Below are positions 650 through 10,060 of a DNA stretch of 10,060 nt, one piece after another. Each line of letters starts with the position of its first letter. Within the stretch, counting starts at the first letter, position 1. The DNA is from a virus (lineage: Duplodnaviria > Heunggongvirae > Uroviricota > Caudoviricetes). Location of the stretch: positions 64,001 through 74,060 of IMG/VR virus record IMGVR_UViG_3300037471_001511; one strand, 5' to 3'. The notes beneath the pieces are model-generated. The model was not told the origin of the DNA. It searched no databases and worked only from the letters and a program-made list of their open reading frames with translations. A program made the position numbers and the translations under genes.

Positions 650-927
650 CCCACAACGTTCACGTAATCCGTGCGCGTGCCGTCGACGAAGACTGGCTGG
701 TTGCTGCGTACACAGAGCGCCAGACTGCCGAGGACGTGCGCGATACTCTCCAGCGCGCCGTCAACGACTACGCCACCAGCACGCGCAAACCCATCGACAA
801 GGCCCACGCCCTCGCCACGCTGGTCGCGGCCGGCGACACCTATGTCGGGCAGGTGGAGATCGACGCCGACCTGTCGTCCATCGACTACACCTTGGTCACC
901 GTGCCGCTCTTTTCCCCGGCCGGGTAA
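646..927 (+). CDS. Hypothetical protein, 93 aa (MTHNVHVIR...PLFSPAG)
   Basis: AGGAG SD and ATGA coupling support a start at 646 rather than 580. The TAA stop lies inside palindrome copy 1. Confidence 0.75.
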   Translation: MTHNVHVIRARAVDEDWLVAAYTERQTAEDVRDTLQRAVNDYATSTRKPIDKAHALATLVAAGDTYVGQVEIDADLSSIDYTLVTVPLFSPAG

Positions 928-929
928 AA
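910..929. repeat. 20-bp palindrome copy 1, TTTTCCCCGGCCGGGTAAAA (one mismatch)
   Basis: Read directly. It overlaps the TAA at 925-927 and abuts the ATG at 930. Confidence 0.95.
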
Positions 930-1418
930 ATGCCGAACGTGTCCACGCCGCCGGTCGAGCGGCTCATCAAGCTGCTCGACTGGCCCGAGCTTGCCGACGT
1001 CCTCGGCCGCTGGCCCAGCAAGGAGCCCGTCCCCTGTCGCAAGGGGCCGAAGCTCATGTGGCACGACAACCGGACGCAACCCACCGTGCGGGTCATGCTC
1101 GAAAGCACGCTCGGTCCGCTGCACCGGTCCTGGCGCGTGAAGCGCACCTGCGAGCGCCCCGAGTGCATCCACCCGTGGCACTACAGCCTCGAGAACATGC
1201 AGCGGATCGACGGCACGCCCCGCGAGCCCCTGCCCCAGCGGTGCTTCCAGTTCACCGAACCGGCCTATCCCGAGGAAGACGACGTGGACACCGCCGTCGC
1301 CATGATCCTGCACGTGGAAGGCCACAACGACGATCCCCAAGCCTTGGCCGAGCGCTTCGATCTGCCGATCGACGCGATCCTGCAGGCCCTGCAACAGATC
1401 AAGGAGGAAGGACTATGA
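930..1418 (+). CDS. Hypothetical protein, 162 aa, with a degenerate HNH/His-Me-finger Zn loop and a possible C-terminal HTH
   Basis: MPNVSTPP...; GPLHRSWRVKRTCERPECIHPWHY resembles the GPIPxGxxVxHxCxNxxCVNPxHL motif of phage HNH proteins. The C-terminal PQALAERFDLPIDAILQAL is HTH-like. The ORF-track extension back to 519 overlaps two better genes. Confidence 0.7.
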   Translation: MPNVSTPPVERLIKLLDWPELADVLGRWPSKEPVPCRKGPKLMWHDNRTQPTVRVMLESTLGPLHRSWRVKRTCERPECIHPWHYSLENMQRIDGTPREPLPQRCFQFTEPAYPEEDDVDTAVAMILHVEGHNDDPQALAERFDLPIDAILQALQQIKEEGL

Positions 1419-1777
1419 AGGTTTTCAGCGTCCCCGACGCGGTCCCGTTCCCCGAACCGGACTACGCCAACTACGACGTGGAGCGAGAACTCGCCCGCCA
1501 GGCCGAGCACACGGCCGCGCTCAAGCAGCACCTGATCGAGGCGGGCTACACCGGCAAGCACACCGGCGAGATCGCCCGCTTCGGCGTCGCCGACGGCTAC
1601 GCCGCCTACATGCTGGCCGACGGGAAGGGGATCTACGGATCGTCGTTCCTGATCCACCTGCCCTACTTCGACGCCTATCACTACCGCCACATCGAGTTCC
1701 TGCCCAAGAAGGAGATCTTGGCGCAGATCGAACGCGGCAAGGCGAGGCCGACGAGCATCTTCTCGAGGAAGCCATGA
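1415..1777 (+). CDS. Hypothetical protein, 120 aa (MKVFSVPD...)
   Basis: Strong AAGGAGG SD and ATGA overlaps at both ends. Globular-looking sequence (GYTGKHTGEIARFGVADGYAAYM). Confidence 0.85.
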   Translation: MKVFSVPDAVPFPEPDYANYDVERELARQAEHTAALKQHLIEAGYTGKHTGEIARFGVADGYAAYMLADGKGIYGSSFLIHLPYFDAYHYRHIEFLPKKEILAQIERGKARPTSIFSRKP

Positions 1778-2259
1778 CCAACGACGAACTCGCCGATCAG
1801 ATCTGTCGGCAGCACGAGCGCCACTACTCGCGCCGGCCCAAGGAAGGTCTGATCCAGACCTGCATGATCTTCCACGGCGACGGCCAGGCCGAGCTGGTGC
1901 AGTGCCCGTGGCGGGACAAGACCGAGCGCATCCTCGTGCTCGAGTTCCTGCGCCAGCGCGTGAAGGAGGTCAGCGCCACCAAGTACGCGTTCTGGGCCGA
2001 AGCGTGGGTGTCCAAGGGCACGCTCGACAAGCCCCTGAACGAGCAGCTGCTCCCGAGCCAGGACCCGAACCGCGAAGAGATGGTGTTCACCATCGTGGTG
2101 GAGCCTGGCCAGCCTGTCGTCACGCGCGCGCAGCGCATCCGCCGGGACGCGATCACGGGCAAGGTGCTGGCCCTGATCAAGGAACAGCCCGAGGCTTTCC
2201 CGATCATGGAAGGTCCGCTGCTCGACCTGCTGGGCGACCGAAGCGGCACCCAGCACTGA
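1774..2259 (+). CDS. Hypothetical protein, 161 aa
   Basis: ATGA-coupled start with GAGGA SD. The stop is immediately followed by palindrome copy 2. Confidence 0.85.
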   Translation: MTNDELADQICRQHERHYSRRPKEGLIQTCMIFHGDGQAELVQCPWRDKTERILVLEFLRQRVKEVSATKYAFWAEAWVSKGTLDKPLNEQLLPSQDPNREEMVFTIVVEPGQPVVTRAQRIRRDAITGKVLALIKEQPEAFPIMEGPLLDLLGDRSGTQH

Positions 2260-2279
2260 TTTTCCCCGGCCGGGGAAAA
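2260..2279. repeat. 20-bp perfect palindrome copy 2
   Basis: TTTTCCCCGGCCGGGGAAAA begins at the base after TGA 2257-2259 and lies upstream of the AAGGAGG SD (2292-2298). Confidence 0.98.
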
Positions 2280-2303
2280 CCCAATCAAATCAAGGAGGTT
2301 CAC

Positions 2304-2846
2304 ATGGCGTGGTTCACCTTCAAGGGTGAAGACCGGCAGGCCGGCGCTATCGGCGCGTTCGAGCCGTTCGAAGAGGCCGTCGACGCCCGCAACCCTATCG
2401 AAGGCAAGGAGGCGCTGATCCGCCGCCGCAACGAAGCCGGGCGGCAGGACGTGCGGGTCACCGAGATCACCGGCGCCGAAGTCCACACGTGGACCTTCGA
2501 GCGAGCCTACGTGCTCGGTTCGTACAGCACCGTCGTGATCGAGGCGCCGACCTACGAGCTGGCCTGCGCCAAGGCGCTGGAGGTGGGCGACGACGACTGG
2601 GCCGACTTCGAGGACGACGGCGAGAGCAGCTCGTCGGTGTATCTCAGCGACGCCGTCGAGGGCGAGCACGACAACACCTACAGCGCCGGCCTCGTCCACC
2701 TGCCGATCCCGTACCCGCAGGCCAAGGACGCAGAGGTGCTGGACTGGCTCGGTCTCAAACCCCTGATCGACCAAGCCCTGACCGCCGGCCCCGACTTCGA
2801 CTTCCCCTCATGGCAGGCCAAACTGAAGGAGGCCCTCAATGCCTAG
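2304..2846 (+). CDS. Acidic hypothetical protein, 180 aa (MAWFTFKGED...)
   Basis: AAGGAGG SD 5 nt before ATG 2304. Hand count gives about 35 D+E against about 15 K+R. Confidence 0.85.
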   Translation: MAWFTFKGEDRQAGAIGAFEPFEEAVDARNPIEGKEALIRRRNEAGRQDVRVTEITGAEVHTWTFERAYVLGSYSTVVIEAPTYELACAKALEVGDDDWADFEDDGESSSSVYLSDAVEGEHDNTYSAGLVHLPIPYPQAKDAEVLDWLGLKPLIDQALTAGPDFDFPSWQAKLKEALNA

Positions 2847-3294
2847 CCGCATGGACCAGTTCTACGCCAACATCGACCGCCACATCGCCACGCTCGGACG
2901 CAGCATCCTGGGCGTGATGGGCGAAGGCGAGCACCTCGGGTTCAGCTACACGATCGGCAACCACAAGGCCGACCTGCCCGAGCTGCTGGTGATCGGGCTC
3001 GAGCCGCGCACGGCCGGCCAGCTGCTGAACTGGATGTCCGACGAGATGAAGAAGCGCGGCCAGAGCTTCGAAAACGGCGAGCTGGTGAACTGGGGCGGCG
3101 AAGGCAAGCTCGCCCTGAAGTTCGTGCGCGCCGGACGCAAGGCCCGCGACGAGTACACGATCCAGGCCACGCGCTACCTCGAGACCGAGGACTACGGCCT
3201 GATGCAGATCCTCGTGCCCGACACCGAGGGCCGCTACCCGGACGAACCCGGGTGTGCGCCGCCGTACGGGACCGTGCCGGTCCTGACCGAATAA
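2839..3294 (+). CDS. DUF4262 domain-containing protein
   Basis: Motifs FSYTIG...LPELLVIGL...AGQLLN and MQILVPDTEGRYPDEPG match the DUF4262 pattern. AAGGAGG SD and an 8-nt overlap with the upstream gene. Confidence 0.85.
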   Translation: MPSRMDQFYANIDRHIATLGRSILGVMGEGEHLGFSYTIGNHKADLPELLVIGLEPRTAGQLLNWMSDEMKKRGQSFENGELVNWGGEGKLALKFVRAGRKARDEYTIQATRYLETEDYGLMQILVPDTEGRYPDEPGCAPPYGTVPVLTE

Positions 3295-3296
3295 CC

Positions 3297-3320
3297 AAAC
3301 CCGCCAAAGGCGGGTTTTTT
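3297..3320 (+). terminator. Rho-independent terminator
   Basis: AAACCCGCC-AAA-GGCGGGTTT followed by TTT (six T in total), 2 nt after the stop at 3294. Confidence 0.85.
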
Positions 3321-3335
3321 AATGGAGCAGCCGCC

Positions 3336-3923
3336 GTGCCAAATCATTGCACGAACCGACTGAGAGTAATCAAGGGGGACGCCAAGTACATTCGCTCGCT
3401 CGTAGCGAACAGGGACGACATCGTCGACTTCAACGTGTTGGTCCCACGTCCGCCCTTCCTCGACTTCACCGAGTCCGGTTCGCAGGCCACGGTGGGCTGG
3501 GAGATCCTCGGCTTCTATGGCGTGCCGGGGGAGGTATTCCGCTTCGGCACGCCGCGCTCGCCCGACGAGGCGTTCGCCTTCGCGTGGGACCAGCTCGGCT
3601 CGAAGGCGAAGCCGGCCGAGCGCAAGAAGTACGTGAAGACGTGCGTCGGCAAGGCGCTGTCGGGCCTGTTCTGCTTCCTCATGACCGGCACGCCCAGCTG
3701 GTACGAGTGGTCTCAGCGCTACTGGGGCACCAAGTGGAACGCCTACAGCACCGCGCCCGGGGAGTGGACCTTCGTCACGGCCTGGTGCCCGCCTCTGGGC
3801 TGGTGCAAGGCGCTCAGCCACGCCCTGCCGGCCGACGCCGAGGTCCGCCTCGACTGGGACGAGGAAGGCGGCGGCTACGGGCGCATCACCATCACCGCCG
3901 ACAAGGTGGAGGAAGAGGAATGA
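3336..3923 (+). CDS. DUF1281 / YubB-like ferredoxin-fold protein, 195 aa
   Basis: GTG start after GGAG. Hallmark motifs MPNHCTNRL, DFNVLVPRP, WYEWSQRYWGTKWNA and FVTAWCPP. Confidence 0.88.
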   Translation: MPNHCTNRLRVIKGDAKYIRSLVANRDDIVDFNVLVPRPPFLDFTESGSQATVGWEILGFYGVPGEVFRFGTPRSPDEAFAFAWDQLGSKAKPAERKKYVKTCVGKALSGLFCFLMTGTPSWYEWSQRYWGTKWNAYSTAPGEWTFVTAWCPPLGWCKALSHALPADAEVRLDWDEEGGGYGRITITADKVEEEE

Positions 3924-4138
3924 TCGACTTCACCGTCGCAGGTCGGGGCGAATTCCCGATCGACATGCTGCGCTACGACCAGTGCTGGCCGGCGGACGGC
4001 AACGCCGCGTCCGACATCCTGCACAGCCTGCGCCCAGGCCCGCTCGAGCGCCGCGAGATCAAGCTGCGCAGCGCGGCCCGGCAGATCACGCCGGACCGCT
4101 GGTCCAGCTTCCTGTGGACTGTGATTAAGGAGAACTGA
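3920..4138 (+). CDS. Small hypothetical protein, 72 aa (MIDFTVAGRGEFPIDMLRYDQCWP...RWSSFLWTV)
   Basis: ATGA coupling and a purine-rich SD. The aromatic-rich compact sequence resembles small phage proteins (recollection, not searched). Confidence 0.8.
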   Translation: MIDFTVAGRGEFPIDMLRYDQCWPADGNAASDILHSLRPGPLERREIKLRSAARQITPDRWSSFLWTVIKEN

Positions 4139-4140
4139 AC

Positions 4141-4680
4141 ATGGGACTCGATTGGGTAGCTACGGCCAAGGCCGACGGCACCAACCCGCGCACCACGCTG
4201 GGCATGCGCCAGATCAGCCGCGACGACCCCGAGACCGTCGAGGAGTTCCGCAAGCTGTGGGAGTCGCACCGCGAAGGCGCGAGCGACAGCAACCCCCGCC
4301 ACAAGGAATACTGGACGCGGCCGTTCGAAACCGTGCTCGACGAGATTCTCGCCGAAGAGGGCGGCGCGCCGTTCATCGCCACCAAGGACACCAAGATCCC
4401 CGAGTTCTGCACCGGGGGCAGCTTCGCGGTCGACCAGTCGATCTCGTGGCGCGGCAAGCGCCTGAACTTCGTCGGCCTGCCCGCCGAGCTGGTGAACGCC
4501 GCCTATGAGGACATGACCCCCGACGAGATGCTGGTCTACGCCGACCGGCTCGAGGCGGCGAGCCTCGACAGCTCCGCGGCGGACATGACGCCCGAAGAGG
4601 CCGAAGAGACCGTCAAGGAAGCTGTGGCATGGCTGCGCTTTTGGGCGAACCACGGCCACGGCCTGTACGCGTGGAGCTGA
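4141..4680 (+). CDS. Hypothetical protein, 179 aa, MGLD-type N-terminus
   Basis: AAGGAG SD, start 2 nt after the upstream stop. Ends AVAWLRFWANHGHGLYAWS. Confidence 0.85.
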   Translation: MGLDWVATAKADGTNPRTTLGMRQISRDDPETVEEFRKLWESHREGASDSNPRHKEYWTRPFETVLDEILAEEGGAPFIATKDTKIPEFCTGGSFAVDQSISWRGKRLNFVGLPAELVNAAYEDMTPDEMLVYADRLEAASLDSSAADMTPEEAEETVKEAVAWLRFWANHGHGLYAWS

Positions 4681-4685
4681 CCCAA

Positions 4686-4705
4686 TTTTCCCCGGCCGGG
4701 GAAAA
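4686..4705. repeat. 20-bp perfect palindrome copy 3
   Basis: Five nt separate it from TGA 4678-4680. Its 3' AAAA runs straight into GGAGA, the SD of the gene at 4715. Confidence 0.98.
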
Positions 4706-4714
4706 GGAGAACCA

Positions 4715-5557
4715 ATGACAGAAGCAGTTCATGAAGAAAAAGCTGGCGGCTTCAAGCTGAAGCTGCTGCCCGACAGCGACGTCGAGTGCCCGGTCGACGA
4801 GCACGACAAGGCCGTCCGGTTCGTGGTGCTGCACGGCCGCTACTCGAACCCCTACCCCGCCCTCAAGACCGTTGAAGAGGTGCAGGAATTCGAGCGCGAG
4901 AACGCCCACGACGACGCCGAATGGGAGATCTTCAGCCTCTGGCTGTTCGACCACTCGACGCGCACGTACCAGCCGTCGAACGACGACCAGAACCCGTTCG
5001 GAACCGGGATGTACGCCCGGTTCGACTCGGGCCGGGTGGGCGTGATCGCGCTCAAGAAGTCCGAGTGGCCAGGCCCGCGCGAGCAGCGGTTCGTGGCCGC
5101 CAAGAACATCGCGCGTGAATACTCGTCCTGGGCCAACGGCGACTGCTACGGCTACGTGATCGAGAACGCGGCCACCGGCGAGGAGGTTGACTCCAGCTGG
5201 GGCTTCGTCGGCTACGAGTACGCGCTCGAGCAGGCCCGCGGCGCCCTCGCCGCCGCCGGCCCGGCCCACTTCGCAGGCGTCAGCGACGAGCACCGCAAGG
5301 TCCTGGACGCACTGATGGCGCCCGACATGTTCCTGCACGGCGTGAGCTACGACCCGACCGAGCAGCGCTACCACTACCGCGACAAGGTCGAGCTGTACCC
5401 GCCGCGCAGCAAGGTCAACGACGAGGCCGAGTGGCTGCTGACCGTCGGCGAAGCCACCGAAGTCGGCAAGTTCCCCGGCCTGCTGCCGGCGGTGCAGGCG
5501 TTCGGCGAGCAGATCGCCAAGTACAAGATCAGCACCGACCTCGACAGCCTGCGCTGA
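4715..5557 (+). CDS. Hypothetical protein, 280 aa
   Basis: AAGGAGA SD. Motifs LFDHS...FDSGRVGVI and WANGDCYGYVIE...DSSWGFVG recall a widespread uncharacterised mobile-element family. It is bracketed by palindrome copies 3 and 4. Confidence 0.85.
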   Translation: MTEAVHEEKAGGFKLKLLPDSDVECPVDEHDKAVRFVVLHGRYSNPYPALKTVEEVQEFERENAHDDAEWEIFSLWLFDHSTRTYQPSNDDQNPFGTGMYARFDSGRVGVIALKKSEWPGPREQRFVAAKNIAREYSSWANGDCYGYVIENAATGEEVDSSWGFVGYEYALEQARGALAAAGPAHFAGVSDEHRKVLDALMAPDMFLHGVSYDPTEQRYHYRDKVELYPPRSKVNDEAEWLLTVGEATEVGKFPGLLPAVQAFGEQIAKYKISTDLDSLR

Positions 5558-5558
5558 T

Positions 5559-5578
5559 TTTTCCCCGGCCGGGGAAAA
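5559..5578. repeat. 20-bp perfect palindrome copy 4
   Basis: One nt separates it from TGA 5555-5557. It is followed by CAAGGAG (SD) and ATG 5594. Confidence 0.98.
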
Positions 5579-5593
5579 CAAGGAGAGCCTGAA

Positions 5594-6070
5594 ATGGGCA
5601 TGGACGTCTTCGGCAAAGAGCCGACCGGCGAGGTCGGTGAATACTTCCGGGCCAGCGTATGGAGCTGGCATCCGCTCGCCACCTTCCTCTACGAGGAATT
5701 TCCCGAGCTGTGTGTCGGGTGCCGGAACTGGCACAGCAACGACGGTGACGGGCTGGACGCGGTCCAGTCCAAGGCGCTGGCCGCCGCGCTGACCGTTGCG
5801 CTCGAGAGCGGCCAGGTCGGCGACTACGTGAGCCGGCGCGACGCCGAGCTGGCCGCGATGCCGGATCTGGTCTGCACCTATTGCAACGGCACGGGCGTCC
5901 GCACCGACGAGGTCGGCAAAAAGCACGGCCTCGACAAGCCGGGCGGCTGCAACGCCTGCAGCGGCAAAGGCAAGGTCCGGCCGAGCGAGACGATGTACTC
6001 GCTCAGCGTCGAGCGGATCACCGCATTCCGCGACTTCCTGCAGGCCTGCGGCGGTTTCGAGATCCTCTGA
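5594..6070 (+). CDS. Hypothetical protein, 158 aa, with two DnaJ-type CxxCxGxG Zn-finger motifs
   Basis: CTYCNGTG and CNACSGKG. N-terminus MGMDVFG, AAGGAG SD. Confidence 0.85.
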   Translation: MGMDVFGKEPTGEVGEYFRASVWSWHPLATFLYEEFPELCVGCRNWHSNDGDGLDAVQSKALAAALTVALESGQVGDYVSRRDAELAAMPDLVCTYCNGTGVRTDEVGKKHGLDKPGGCNACSGKGKVRPSETMYSLSVERITAFRDFLQACGGFEIL

Positions 6071-6264
6071 TGGAACCCGGCGACCGCATCCGTCTCGTCA
6101 GCATGCCTGACGATCCCGATCCCCTTCCGCCGGGCAGCACCGGCACCGTGACCTTCGTCACCCCGCTCGCCGGCCTCGGCTGGACGCAGGTGGGCGTGGC
6201 CTGGGACAACGGCCGCACGCTGCTGCTCTCAATCCCCCCTGATCGAGTGGAGATTATCGAATGA
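6070..6264 (+). CDS. DUF4314 domain-containing protein, 64 aa
   Basis: TGATG coupling at 6068-6072. GDRIRLVSMPDDPDPLPPGSTGTV...VAWDNGRTLLL...D matches the DUF4314 pattern. Confidence 0.88.
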   Translation: MEPGDRIRLVSMPDDPDPLPPGSTGTVTFVTPLAGLGWTQVGVAWDNGRTLLLSIPPDRVEIIE

Positions 6265-6767
6265 TTATCCAGATCAGCGAAAAGCCGCTGCGCGATCTGA
6301 TCGGCGCCGCCGAGAGCTACGCCGAAGACTTGTCCACGGGCCTGGACGACGGCACGTACGACAGGACGGACGAGAACGCCCAGCGGTTACAGGACACCGA
6401 GAACGCCATCAGCTACGCCAAGGCGGCGCTGGCGGAATTCGGCACGATGGGCGCCTACCCCGGCGCCCACAAGATCTTCCCTGACTTCGTCCAGCTGCCG
6501 GTGCCGGAAGGTTTCTACGACCGCACCGACCGGGACGACACGATGCCCAACTACTACGACCCGCGCAGCTCGCTGTGGTTGTTCACAGACTTCGAGCGGG
6601 AAGAAGACCGGGAAGTGCCGGGCCGCAGCCGCTTCCAGCTCTACATGAAGGTTCCCGGCGGCGACGCCGACACCAGCAAAGAACTGTTCATGTCTGACTC
6701 GTGGGACGCAATGGTGGGCTTCATCACGGCGTGGCGGGTTTGGACCACGGGGCCGGGAGCGTCCTGA
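6261..6767 (+). CDS. Acidic hypothetical protein, 168 aa, possibly two domains
   Basis: ATGA coupling and GGAG SD. A helical-looking N-terminal half precedes FPDFVQLPVPEGF...RFQL. Confidence 0.8.
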   Translation: MIIQISEKPLRDLIGAAESYAEDLSTGLDDGTYDRTDENAQRLQDTENAISYAKAALAEFGTMGAYPGAHKIFPDFVQLPVPEGFYDRTDRDDTMPNYYDPRSSLWLFTDFEREEDREVPGRSRFQLYMKVPGGDADTSKELFMSDSWDAMVGFITAWRVWTTGPGAS

Positions 6768-7100
6768 ATGGCCCGCTTCGTCAAGCCAACCCCCGACTTC
6801 GTGCGCCACTGCGCCGGCCGCGACTTCCTCTCCGAACTGCGCATGGCCTTCGTCTACTACCGCGACGCCCAATGGCTGCGGCGGTCGGCGCTGGACAGCA
6901 GCGACCCCGACACCCGGGCTTGGCGCCGGCGCAAGGGGCGCGAGTACATGGCCTGGTGCCGCATGTACGTCCTGCGTGCGCTGGGCACCCTCGAGCGTGA
7001 TCGTGCCGCCGAGAGCTTCAGGCTCCCGCTCGGCGTGACGTGGGAAGAAATCGCCGTCCGGCGACCGCAGGTTGCTGGCGCGCAACATCAAAGAAAGTGA
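6768..7100 (+). CDS. Basic, Arg-rich hypothetical protein, 110 aa
   Basis: ATG directly abuts the upstream TGA, with a GGGAG SD. It fills the gap between two well-supported genes. Confidence 0.6.
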   Translation: MARFVKPTPDFVRHCAGRDFLSELRMAFVYYRDAQWLRRSALDSSDPDTRAWRRRKGREYMAWCRMYVLRALGTLERDRAAESFRLPLGVTWEEIAVRRPQVAGAQHQRK

Positions 7101-7113
7101 GGAATTCCCCATC

Positions 7114-7476
7114 ATGGCTGGAACCCTGACCTTCCAAGCCGCCGACGTGCAGCGGCTGATCGACGTGACCAAGGCGGCCAAGGAGCATCGCGGCCGTCCG
7201 TACGAGGACGACACTCCCGAACCGGGGCTGTGGCTCGTCGGCGACGACGGCGTCTATCTCATGACCAACCGCAAGCTCGGCCAAGGCGAGAAGCCGGAAG
7301 TGGTCTACGCCCAAGAGTGCCCGTCCGGCGACTTCCACGCCAAGCGGCAGATCTTCGGCGGCGACGACGGGGCCGAGTTCCTGCCCGTCGAAGACTGCGA
7401 GAAGTGGGTCAGCCGCTCGGGCGGGCCGACCGTGTTCATCAAGCTGTCGCCCGAGCAACTGGAACTGCTTTCGTAA
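7114..7476 (+). CDS. DUF3085 domain-containing protein, 120 aa
   Basis: GAGGA SD favours ATG 7114 over 7072. LWLVGDDGVYLMTN...VVYAQEC...FGGDDGAEFL matches DUF3085. Confidence 0.88.
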   Translation: MAGTLTFQAADVQRLIDVTKAAKEHRGRPYEDDTPEPGLWLVGDDGVYLMTNRKLGQGEKPEVVYAQECPSGDFHAKRQIFGGDDGAEFLPVEDCEKWVSRSGGPTVFIKLSPEQLELLS

Positions 7477-7513
7477 TCAGTTCCACTGGAACCAACGACT
7501 CAGTGTCTGGCCC

Positions 7514-7534
7514 GCCCGCTTCGGCGGGCTTTTT
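7514..7534 (+). terminator. Rho-independent terminator with a C(UUCG)G tetraloop
   Basis: GCCCGC-TTCG-GCGGGC followed by TTTTT. An alternative stem, 7510-7516 with 7523-7529, is also possible. Confidence 0.88.
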
Positions 7535-7561
7535 CATGTCCGCACCGCAAGGGAGGACCCC

Positions 7562-7906
7562 ATGAAGAAGCCCATCACCGAACTGGTTCCGAACGACGTG
7601 ATCACCATCCAGGTCCGCGTGACCCGGCGCATCGAGGACGACTTCCTGACCGTGCAGGTCCCCTGCCGGCCGGACAAGACCATGTTCCTCGAGGTGCCGT
7701 CCGACGCCTACGTCGGCTGGATGCGCCACGACTTCCAGTCGGGCGACCGCGTGGCCTGGCACGACGACCAGTACCAGTACGAGGGCAAGGTGATCGGCTC
7801 GACCCGCGAGCTGCTCATCGTGCAGCTCGACACTGGCCCCGAAGCAGCCGTACGCAAGGACGAACCGTCGCTTGTGGACGCCCTAGCCTATGCAAAGGCA
7901 GCATAA
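7562..7906 (+). CDS. Hypothetical protein, 114 aa, possibly tandem small beta-barrels (SH3/KOW-like)
   Basis: GGGAGG SD. Two beta-rich segments (LVPNDVITIQVRV; FQSGDRVAW...EGKVIG). The fold is a guess. Confidence 0.75.
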   Translation: MKKPITELVPNDVITIQVRVTRRIEDDFLTVQVPCRPDKTMFLEVPSDAYVGWMRHDFQSGDRVAWHDDQYQYEGKVIGSTRELLIVQLDTGPEAAVRKDEPSLVDALAYAKAA

Positions 7907-8739
7907 TGGGAACACGTAATCTCACCGCCGTCGTACTGGGCGGCAAATACAAGATCGCCCAGTACGGCCAATGGGACGGCTATCCGAAGGGTCAGGGCCT
8001 GACTTGCCTGAACTTCCTTCGCTCGGTCGATCTCGACGCCTTCAAGGCCAAGGTCGCGACGACGCGCTTCGGCAGCAAGGCCGAGCTTAAGGCCATCTTC
8101 AAGCCGTACACCGACGACGAAGGCTGGATGAACATGACCCAGGCCGAGGCGTTCGCGAAATCGCCGTACGCCTATCTGAGCCGCAACACCGGCGCCGGCA
8201 TCTTGCAGGTGGTGATGGACGCCCCGGACGGGATCCTGCTGCAGGACGACCACGAGTTCGCCGCCGACGGCCTGTTCTGCGAGTGGGCCTACGTGATCGA
8301 CCTCGACCGCCGTACCTTCGAGATCTACCGCGGCTTCCAGAGACGCCCCGTGCCGCCGGGCCAGCGCTTCTACCACCTGAACAAGCTGGCCCACGTCTCA
8401 CACGACAAGAGCGTGTGGTATCCGGTGCAGTTGCTGCGCAGCTACCCGCTCGACGCCCTGCCGACGGACGAGGCGTTCCTCAAGCTCGAGAACGCCCAGT
8501 GGTTGCCCGACAGCGTCCATGAGGGCGGTCCGGACGTGGCGTGGAAGGTGGTCGACATCGACTGGGACGACCCGCGCTACGCGATCCTGGAGTCGAGCGA
8601 CCATGAATACCAGGTCGCGTTCCGCAGCCCCGATCAGGAGGACCGCGACGAGTGGCAGGACGTCTTCGAGGCCCTGCCGGCGTTCACCACCCTCGAAGCG
8701 GCCAAGGCCGCTCTGGCGCTGAAACATGAGCAAGCCTGA
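7906..8739 (+). CDS. Hypothetical protein, 277 aa (MGTR...AQYGQWDGYP...LFCEWAYVIDLD)
   Basis: TAATG coupling at 7904-7908. The motifs recall an uncharacterised phage/plasmid family, with an acidic C-terminal extension. Confidence 0.85.
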   Translation: MGTRNLTAVVLGGKYKIAQYGQWDGYPKGQGLTCLNFLRSVDLDAFKAKVATTRFGSKAELKAIFKPYTDDEGWMNMTQAEAFAKSPYAYLSRNTGAGILQVVMDAPDGILLQDDHEFAADGLFCEWAYVIDLDRRTFEIYRGFQRRPVPPGQRFYHLNKLAHVSHDKSVWYPVQLLRSYPLDALPTDEAFLKLENAQWLPDSVHEGGPDVAWKVVDIDWDDPRYAILESSDHEYQVAFRSPDQEDRDEWQDVFEALPAFTTLEAAKAALALKHEQA

Positions 8740-9052
8740 GCACGTCGTCGTCCTGCACCTCGACGCCGACGGCTCGGTCTCCCTGCGGGTGTGGGGCGAC
8801 GAGCGCGTCTGCGTGCTCTGGGTCGACGAGACCTGCCCCACCGACCGGGTCTACTGCCAGACGGCCCGCGAAACCGATCCCGAGGCGCTGCGCGCGCTGA
8901 TCGGCGACAGCCCGATCGGCCACTACGGCGACGGGACGCTCACCCCTGAAACGGAACAGGCGATCCGCGCCGCCCTGTGGCGGGCCGAAGGCGGACGCCT
9001 GCAACTGGTGGAAATCAACAATGAAACTGGAGACCGCACTCAGGCTTCGTGA
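8726..9052 (+). CDS. Hypothetical protein, 108 aa
   Basis: 14-nt overlap with the upstream gene, with codon style matching its neighbours. Confidence 0.75.
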   Translation: MSKPEHVVVLHLDADGSVSLRVWGDERVCVLWVDETCPTDRVYCQTARETDPEALRALIGDSPIGHYGDGTLTPETEQAIRAALWRAEGGRLQLVEINNETGDRTQAS

Positions 9053-9503
9053 CGCCCTCAACGAGGCGATCACCGAGCTGCAGGCGGCCCGTGTCGTTCC
9101 CGCGACGCGGACCGACGAGCTGGCCGACACGCTCGGCGACGCCGTGACTGACGACATCTGGTACGACGCCGGCAGCTTCGACGACGAATCGTCCAAGGCC
9201 GCCGCCCAGCGGATCGAGAAGACCCAGAAGGCGATGCTTGAGGCCGCAGCGGTGCTGCGCCGGCTCGCCAGCCTGCGGATCGGCGTCTGGATCCACGGCG
9301 GGAACGTCGTCGGCGTGTTCAGCGACCGGGACGTGCCCGACCTCAGCGTCAGGGTGGTCGACCTCGACAGCCACGGCGCGTCGCCGGACAACATCACCGA
9401 GGTGCGCCAGGGCCGAGTCTGGGTCAAGGCGCTCGTCACCGACTGGGGCGTCGAGCACGTCCCGACCCTCAACTGGCAGGAGGATTTCCGTGGCCCAGAC
9501 TAG
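9021..9503 (+). CDS. Hypothetical protein, 160 aa
   Basis: 32-nt overlap with the upstream gene. Helical N-terminal half and beta-rich C-terminal half (IGVWIHGGNVVGV...VRVVDLD). Confidence 0.75.
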   Translation: MKLETALRLRDALNEAITELQAARVVPATRTDELADTLGDAVTDDIWYDAGSFDDESSKAAAQRIEKTQKAMLEAAAVLRRLASLRIGVWIHGGNVVGVFSDRDVPDLSVRVVDLDSHGASPDNITEVRQGRVWVKALVTDWGVEHVPTLNWQEDFRGPD

Positions 9504-9717
9504 ACGCTTCCAGCTCAGCATGTGGCTGCAGAACGCAGCGTTCGCGCCGCCCCACACGTCGGACGAAATCGCCAGGATCCTGCGGGACGTGGCGGTCCGG
9601 ATCGAGCGGGCCGACAGCATCTTCGACAGCCCGCAGTTCATCCTGTTCGACGTCAACGGGAACGAAGTGGGCTTCGCCATCGTGACGGGGCCGGAACCGG
9701 AGAGCACCGATGGCTAA
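9490..9717 (+). CDS. Small hypothetical protein, 75 aa (FQLSMWLQNAAF...EIARILR...LFDVNGNEVG)
   Basis: GTG 9490 follows GGAGG. The NAAF/ExARILR/DxNGNxVG pattern recalls a common small phage protein family (recollection). Confidence 0.8.
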   Translation: MAQTRRFQLSMWLQNAAFAPPHTSDEIARILRDVAVRIERADSIFDSPQFILFDVNGNEVGFAIVTGPEPESTDG

Positions 9718-10060
9718 GAAGCTCATCCACCCCGAAACCAAGGGCGACATCGTCGGCACCCTCGAGACCGTGCCCGGGATCGCCCTGATCGAACAGGGCG
9801 AGGGTCCGAACGGCTTCGAGATCGACGGCGTTCACTTCTGCTACGCGGGCTCGACCACTGTCCTGTGGGACGACCAGAAGACCGTCCTGCGCGACGGCAA
9901 GCGTGTGTTCGTCGACGAGGGTGGCGACCAGACCACCGAGCCCCAGCTCGTCGACGAAGACGACGAGGAAGAGGAAGTTTCCCCGGCCGGGGAAAAACTC
10001 TGGCTGGTCGTGATCACCCACAAACACGGCGAGGACCGGAGCCTGCACCGCACCAAGGCC
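9710..10060 (+). CDS. Hypothetical protein, partial, runs off the right edge (MAKKLIHPETKGDIVGTLETVPG...); not in the supplied ORF track
   Basis: GGAG SD, 8-nt overlap with the upstream gene, and 117 open codons to the window end. Contains DEDDEEEE followed by VSPAGEK, which is encoded by palindrome copy 5. Confidence 0.85.
   Translation, partial: MAKKLIHPETKGDIVGTLETVPGIALIEQGEGPNGFEIDGVHFCYAGSTTVLWDDQKTVLRDGKRVFVDEGGDQTTEPQLVDEDDEEEEVSPAGEKLWLVVITHKHGEDRSLHRTKA
9977..9996. repeat. Palindrome copy 5, GTTTCCCCGGCCGGGGAAAA (one mismatch; perfect 18-bp core 9978-9995), intragenic
   Basis: Read directly; in frame within the gene starting at 9710. Confidence 0.95.

Follow-up and report, generated by a model that had tools for sequence, protein, structure and literature searches.

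What function is served by a short palindrome that recurs between the small genes at one end of an uncultivated phage genome? The question is raised by bases 64,001-74,060 of the IMG/VR contig IMGVR_UViG_3300037471_001511, the last 10 kb of a 74,060-bp record (66.5% GC). This stretch of 10,060 bp is called the window here, and positions refer to it unless the contig is named. The element is the 20-mer TTTTCCCCGGCCGGGGAAAA, a perfect palindrome of 18-20 bp that reads identically on either strand. An earlier note on the window had offered three explanations for it: a site for a dimeric protein, a joint through which gene cassettes are gained or shuffled, and a hairpin in RNA or single-stranded DNA. 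The present analysis favours the first. With a probability of about 0.55, TTTTCCCCGGCCGGGGAAAA is a sequence-specific binding site in double-stranded DNA for a dimeric, phage-encoded regulator, which would control the early-gene arm of the genome as a unit.

Copies and Conservation of the Palindrome

A search allowing up to three mismatches returned exactly five matches in the window, at 910..929, 2260..2279, 4686..4705, 5559..5578 and 9977..9996. The second, third and fourth are perfect, and the outer two carry one mismatch each, G16>T at 910 and T1>G at 9977. Start-to-start distances recomputed from these matches are 1350, 2426, 873 and 4418 bp. Both the copies and their spacing agree with the earlier note. 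No match was found in 200 shuffles of the window, and the whole contig holds 12 copies at the same threshold against 0.06 expected by chance. These two results rule out a chance origin of the array.

Mapping across the replicon, which the earlier note had called for, revealed that the copies are concentrated at one end. Nine of the 12 are located within the last 13 kb of the contig (60,789-73,996, or window -3211 to 9996), four of them upstream of the window, and eight of these nine early-arm copies have a perfect 18-bp core. The other three are degenerate and all lie inside genes, at contig positions 6886, 18071 and 30462; apart from 18071, near-perfect copies are found only at 60.8-74 kb. 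In an information profile of the nine early-arm copies, positions 2-19 are invariant save for one G>T change, and positions 1 and 20 are semi-conserved. The flanks are at background level, with no conserved base beyond the 20-mer, so that the sharp edges described for the five window copies hold for all nine.

The palindrome is also absent as a repeat from cellular genomes. Among 185,579 species genomes the exact 18-mer was found as 57 scattered single-copy stretches and never more than twice in one genome. Metagenomes yielded 63 contigs, all with single copies, and other viruses a single unrelated viral contig. A host-wide REP-like repeat is ruled out by these counts.

Position of the Copies among the Genes

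The gene map was derived from a frame analysis of third-position GC. Exact-protein look-ups for longer contigs of the phage turned up only two short Logan contigs, whose independent gene calls match the map. It comprises 23 tightly packed genes in the window, all on the plus strand and mostly orphans. The earlier note had placed four copies at stop/start junctions, and the map bears this out. The copy at 910..929 covers the last six codons of gene 646-927, supplies its TAA stop (read FSPAG-stop) and adjoins the ATG of gene 930-1418; no family match was found for gene 646-927 in Pfam and PHROG scans of the window genes. The copy at 2260..2279 directly follows the TGA of gene 1774-2259; 24 nt separate it from the ATG of gene 2304-2846, a gene with an AAGGAGG ribosome-binding site of its own. 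The copy at 4686..4705 begins 5 nt past the stop of gene 4141-4680, with 9 nt to the ATG of gene 4715-5557, and the copy at 5559..5578 begins 1 nt past the stop of that same gene, with 15 nt to the ATG of gene 5594-6070. These two copies therefore bracket one gene of 280 aa. The fifth copy, at 9977..9996, is in frame inside an open reading frame that runs from 9710 to the contig end, where it is read VSPAGEK in rare codons.

Six intergenic gaps exceed 20 nt, and their contents are as previously noted: three hold the palindrome (2260, 4686 and 5559), two hold terminators and one, at 446-466, is empty. Over the whole early arm, seven of the nine copies lie in or across stop/start gaps, and the flanking genes are all on one strand. 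The copies divide the arm into blocks of one to six genes. Distances from palindrome to start codon in the contig are 0, 9, 15, 16, 24, 27, 73 or about 96 nt. Junction copies are located between a stop codon and the next ribosome-binding site, mostly 0-27 nt from the start codon, and most array genes have a ribosome-binding site separate from the palindrome. The upstream copies at contig positions 60789 and 62860 differ in their setting, as they lie downstream of AT-rich, promoter-like intergenic regions and before the first gene of a block. These regions extend over contig positions 60460-60790 and 62650-62860 (the latter at about -1350 to -1140 in the window) in a genome of 66% GC. The contig has just two occurrences of the octamer TTGTATTG, one 58 nt ahead of copy 60789 and one 15 nt ahead of copy 62860.

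An intrinsic (rho-independent) terminator is ruled out, in either direction, as the earlier note had argued. On both strands the stem is followed by an A-run (AAAA) and not by a T-run, so no U-tract is formed. True terminators with a stem and U-tract are present in the same array at 3297-3320 and 7509-7535. Neither of these leaves room for a promoter before the next gene, which implies that the downstream genes need read-through or antitermination.

The copies inside genes provide a further hint about the level at which the motif is maintained. They use codons that the genome avoids, namely TTT (1.7% of Phe), GTT (2.9% of Val), AAA (7.9% of Lys) and GGG (13.6% of Gly). Retention of the motif in spite of such codons points to selection on the nucleotides rather than on the peptide. 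Four of these copies (window 910-927 and 9977-9996, contig 18070-18089 and 30461-30480) share one reading frame around a P-A-G core, giving FSPAG-stop, VSPAGEK, FSPAGK and AYPAGE, and the degenerate copy at 6886 is read in a different frame. At 9977, the motif joins an acidic tail to the apparent start of another domain, and the open reading frame may be a gene fusion across a former junction.

Private Palindromes of Related Phages

The contig, about 87% complete according to CheckV, encodes a siphophage protein set that includes a J-like tail protein, portal, large terminase, major head protein and primase, together with a DNA polymerase fragment, an SbcC-like protein and ribonucleotide reductase. 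Five phages are related to it and colinear in gene order. Caulobacter phage Seuss has the most similar major head protein (62% identity), and the head proteins of JWF and 2-1 (both Achromobacter phages), Lumi (Xylophilus) and KB12-38 (Pseudoalteromonas) are 46-52% identical. An integrase (PHROG 1, E=1.5e-11) and a CI-like HTH_3 protein are present in the contig and absent from these relatives. The contig is a Seuss/JWF-like siphophage, and probably temperate because of these two proteins. A primase query for closer relatives gave no match, and the collections searched contain no close relative of the contig.

Each of the five relatives carries its own palindrome, limited to one arm of its genome, with JWF and 2-1 sharing one. 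In the four relatives with terminal repeats, this arm is the small-gene arm beside the repeat. Seuss has five unique copies of TTTACCTSAGGTAAA; in four of them the annotated ribosome-binding site is part of the palindrome, which stops 0-5 nt short of a start codon. JWF has nine unique copies of GGTTCGTWACGAACC, all in its last 12.5 kb, and nine copies of the same palindrome are found in 2-1. In Lumi, TTACT-N5-AGTAA occurs as 17 unique copies in the last 25 kb; this motif was not found in the other three phages, and the reversed control gave no match. KB12-38 has ten copies of CGGGGTAACGTTACCCCG within 26 kb, followed by a conserved AT-rich box and a ribosome-binding site. The repeats are not mentioned in the Seuss genome announcement or in the Lumi paper.

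The comparison of JWF with 2-1 supplies the check for covariation among homologues that the earlier note had proposed. At seven orthologous sites the half-sites are 100% conserved, although the 60-nt flanks average only about 64% identity. Changes were observed at the central base only, and no compensatory change was found among the seven sites. In Lumi, invariant half-sites flank a variable 5-bp spacer whose bases often cannot pair.

Two side observations concern the surroundings of these palindromes. In KB12-38 the palindrome belongs to a longer repeated cassette consisting of the palindrome, TTAATTAAACTAAAACT, GGATTGACA and an ATG (record positions 34088-60031), a layout that resembles the terminator and promoter module of PeSL type. 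In JWF, the copies at 75020, 76940 and 77578 have a common leader of about 30 bp, in which the palindrome is followed by ttcaaggatNaatcATG; this suggests duplication or conversion of the whole leader.

Protein Binding Site or RNA Hairpin

Several features speak for a symmetric protein that recognises the site as double-stranded DNA: the invariance of the half-sites, the Lumi spacer, the symmetry of the centre, the lack of conserved hairpin strength and the rare codons of the in-gene copies. Complementarity runs through the 3-4 central bases of the contig, KB12-38, JWF and Seuss palindromes. The fixed half-sites of Lumi, separated by a spacer that often cannot pair, are the signature of a dimer and not of a hairpin. 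The presence of ordinary terminators with a stem and U-tract elsewhere in the same array also counts for a DNA site. These patterns suggest that a protein binds the palindrome, that it is phage-encoded and dimeric, and that repression is the outcome.

At copies 60789 and 62860, between an AT-rich promoter-like region and the first gene of a block, the bound protein would act as at a classical operator. At the remaining copies, which lie in minimal gaps between cistrons, it could block elongating RNA polymerase in the manner of stoperators. The whole arm would then be silenced tightly, be it in the lysogen or during the switch from early to middle expression.

The main competing explanation places the signal in the transcript. 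An 8-bp stem with a GGCC loop between cistrons could serve as a processing, stability or translational-coupling signal, or as an antitermination signal of nut or put type, possibly with a sequence-specific RNA-binding protein. Folding predictions give a hairpin for each context, with about -10.5 kcal/mol for the isolated element, and all junction copies are found between a stop codon and the next ribosome-binding site. The Seuss palindrome is certainly transcribed, since it includes a Shine-Dalgarno sequence and the distance from its end to the start codon is 0-5 nt at four of five sites. The two array terminators without a following promoter imply some control by read-through.

The details of the sequences fit such a hairpin poorly. 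Its strength varies across the relatives, with five A/U-rich pairs and a variable loop in Lumi and a weak structure in Seuss. In Lumi it is the potential stem that never varies and the potential loop that does, whereas known RNA hairpins bound by proteins show the opposite pattern, and in four lineages symmetry continues through the would-be loop. Compensatory or wobble substitutions were detected neither between JWF and 2-1 nor among the imperfect copies of the contig; the variant at 910 gives a C-U mismatch and that at contig position 18070 a C-A mismatch on its coding strand. Fold z-scores against shuffles are unremarkable for four of five copies. The element can therefore fold, as the earlier note had proposed, but loop symmetry, the Lumi spacer and the missing compensatory changes make an RNA-level function unlikely. 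Two specific forms are ruled out altogether. The stem is too short for RNase III, and a hairpin promoter of N4 type would require a virion RNA polymerase, for which there is no candidate, as the 2016-aa protein matches tape-measure homologues.

A dimeric binding site, the first explanation of the earlier note, is the preferred reading. Candidate binders are the CI-like HTH_3 protein at contig positions 21016-21714 and two tandem helix-turn-helix (HTH) proteins at 18805-19281 and 19281-19991. Copy 18070 lies in the same gene block and on the same strand as these candidates.

A number of points weigh against protein binding. In the virulent relatives, which do carry arrays, homologues of the HTH candidates are lacking, and no DNA-binding domain was found among the array genes in the Pfam and PHROG scans. 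A sigma-70 scan of 20 kb revealed no consensus promoter overlapping any copy of the palindrome. It gave 0 sites in the contig stretch (1.3 expected), a scan of JWF gave 3 (4.5 expected), and these counts are uninformative. Most copies leave no room for a promoter, so that the model needs a roadblock, a mode of action documented mainly for asymmetric stoperators bound by a monomer. The transcript can form a stable 8-bp hairpin, and a position between stop codon and ribosome-binding site suits an RNA element equally well. The palindromic form itself hides any signal of strand or orientation. Finally, with the contig about 87% complete and some 10 kb lacking between its ends, part of the arm is missing and possibly the regulator gene too. 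The contig breaks within the DNA polymerase gene, which means that part of the arm downstream of the window is lost, and a counterpart of the Cro/C1-type gp77 of Seuss would fall in the missing part. An Atlas search with the conserved 153-aa neighbour of the primase was uninformative on the regulator.

A broader proposal extends the binding-site reading to the whole group. Seuss/JWF-like siphophages might possess a fast-evolving system of "address labels", in which each lineage has a private palindrome and a cognate protein family that decide which early genes of a co-infecting or resident relative are expressed or silenced. This would amount to inter-phage immunity, virulent members included, with the sites doubling as joints for orphan early genes and with the rare-codon copies inside genes acting as functional brakes, not relics. 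The proposal is speculative and quite improbable as a whole.

Other DNA Transactions and Recombination

A symmetric DNA site could also be used for something other than early-gene control, such as binding of a host nucleoid or regulatory protein, control of replication or DNA entry, or recognition by a phage nuclease or a defence-related factor. JWF and 2-1 share both host species and palindrome, which is compatible with a host factor, and a 200-bp AT-rich region lies directly upstream of copy 62860. Copy 910 is abutted by an HNH_3-like orphan (930-1418) whose homologue in Seuss, gp117, has a Seuss palindrome next to it. These observations are outweighed by others. The 18-mer is never present more than twice per reference genome, unlike the regulon of a host factor, and the Seuss and contig palindromes differ although both phages look like Caulobacter-type phages. 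A nick or cut at a palindrome would break both strands, and nine sites over 13 kb at cistron junctions do not resemble an origin or a packaging site. A role of this kind is accordingly very unlikely.

It has also been suggested, in the earlier note, that the copies are junctions for gene cassettes. In this case the identical 20-mers would chiefly be short patches of homology for the gain, loss and shuffling of modules of one to six genes in a hypervariable early arm. The array genes are almost all orphans, the copies partition the arm into blocks of that size, and gene 4715-5557 is flanked by two perfect copies. In JWF, a two-gene insertion relative to 2-1 is bounded by the palindromes at 77578 and 76940, which share their extended leader. 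The arm of these two phages is syntenic with patchy similarity, several blocks of which begin or end at a palindrome, and the repeated KB12-38 cassette likewise extends from the palindrome over the AT-rich box and the ribosome-binding site.

This one palindrome-bounded insertion lends weak support to the idea of a cassette joint, but the genes that JWF has and 2-1 lacks show no significant enrichment directly downstream of palindromes (4 of 9 versus 6 of 28). Moreover, 20 bp offers little length for homologous recombination to proceed efficiently, target-site duplications are absent, and the sites have no recombinase tied to them. The invariance of the site amid diverging flanks, and its retention in coding DNA, require a function beyond that of a joint. 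There is only a slim chance that joining is the primary role of the palindrome. The repeats may plausibly recombine as a by-product, in the way of PeSLs, but this would not be the reason for their conservation. An integron attC or cassette site is ruled out, as the element is too short and neither IntI nor attI is present.

Comparison with Described Repeats

Comparable arrays have already been described in mycobacteriophages (PMC4351075, PMC3203893, PMC6550527), and the contig array does not call for a new category. Cluster O mycobacteriophages carry a 17-bp repeat with dyad symmetry, TGTTCGGNNNCCGAACA, with no known binder or function (PMC4351075). Like the contig palindrome, this inverted repeat is private to the phage and does not vary among its many copies (tens in Cluster O); it is located mostly between open reading frames or at the 5' ends of genes and has no clear orientation. 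The Cluster O repeat differs in being distributed over the whole genome and not over one arm, and in having a 3-bp spacer. Host and phage lineage are unrelated, and no homology is implied.

The stoperators of Cluster A are asymmetric 13-14-mers whose orientation follows transcription and which are bound by a monomeric repressor of the L5 gp71 type (PMC9283540, PMC6550527). They share with the contig array a short site that recurs many times in the narrow gaps between genes of an operon, an additional operator close to the promoter, and a specificity that differs among relatives. The contig site is, in contrast, a perfect palindrome limited to the early arm, and it lacks the asymmetry that characterizes stoperators. 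The start-associated sequences (SAS) of Cluster K are asymmetric, contain AGGAG and lie 3-7 bp from the start codon; the extended SAS are subcluster-specific inverted repeats, which are thought to be protein sites rather than RNA hairpins (PMC3203893). SAS resemble the contig array in their restriction to the non-structural arm and their location just upstream of start codons, and the Seuss palindrome likewise holds the ribosome-binding site. In the contig, the distances of 0-73 nt or more and the mostly separate ribosome-binding sites set the array apart from SAS.

PeSL cassettes of T4-type phages are composites of terminator and sigma-70 promoter motifs (PMC2839356, PMC4122927). They too are repeated stem-loop motifs that lie at the edges of small early orphan genes of a hyperplastic region, and these genes can be shuffled when copies recombine. 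In the contig, conservation ends at 20 bp, and there are no promoter hexamers and no U-tract.

The IncP KorB operators (OB) are 13-bp palindromes present in 12 copies and bound by one global dimeric repressor of the ParB family that can act at a distance. They share with the contig array a dispersed palindrome with an AT-rich rim and a GC-rich centre. The analogies to KorB/KorC and CUP repeats drawn in the earlier note hold only at the level of function, as these are plasmid systems and the present element is a phage. No ParB_N or KorB match was found by Pfam and PHROG scans among the approximately 60 contig proteins scanned, a partial proteome from an 87% complete contig. On balance, the array appears to work most like a network of stoperators or operators, outside those families.

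If this holds, the array marks out the early regulon of a phage that is uncultivated, probably temperate and related to Seuss. Lineage-private palindromes are carried by a whole group of siphophages (Seuss, JWF, 2-1, Lumi and KB12-38). Pairs of site and regulator would mark early genes without expression data and point to an unrecognised family of regulators. They might also provide orthogonal operator-repressor pairs for GC-rich hosts.

Genes and a Second Palindrome of the Early Arm

Nearly all array genes are orphans without a homologue in the five relatives. For the 280-aa protein of gene 4715-5557, only two loci were matched, at 32% identity. Family matches among the window genes are limited to acyltransferase_3, DUF4262, DUF1281_C, DUF4314, DUF3085, a CxxC zinc-finger and a weak HNH_3-like match. 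Genes at 1-445, 2839-3923, 6070-6264 and 7114-7476 account for the acyltransferase_3 membrane protein, DUF4262, DUF1281_C (Api92-like), DUF4314 and DUF3085. The acyltransferase_3 membrane protein is possibly a surface-modification moron.

The orphan encoded by gene 930-1418, which abuts copy 910, is 162 aa long and has an HNH_3-like Cys...C-I-H-P-W-H motif (PHROG 1872, E=6e-4). Homology was detectable only to Seuss gp117 (32% over 96 aa), itself a neighbour of a Seuss palindrome, and JWF gp114 and 2-1 gene 76 belong to the same PHROG. In a set of 5.8 billion proteins, no homologue other than the protein itself was found.

The contig also carries another palindrome family, GTTCCANTGGAAC, with 17 copies over its full length when up to two mismatches are allowed. 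A perfect copy is located at 7480-7492 in the largest gap of the window, 17 nt before the terminator at 7509-7535. The outer half-sites of this family, GTTC-N5-GAAC, are those of the early-arm palindrome of JWF and 2-1, GTTCGTWACGAAC.

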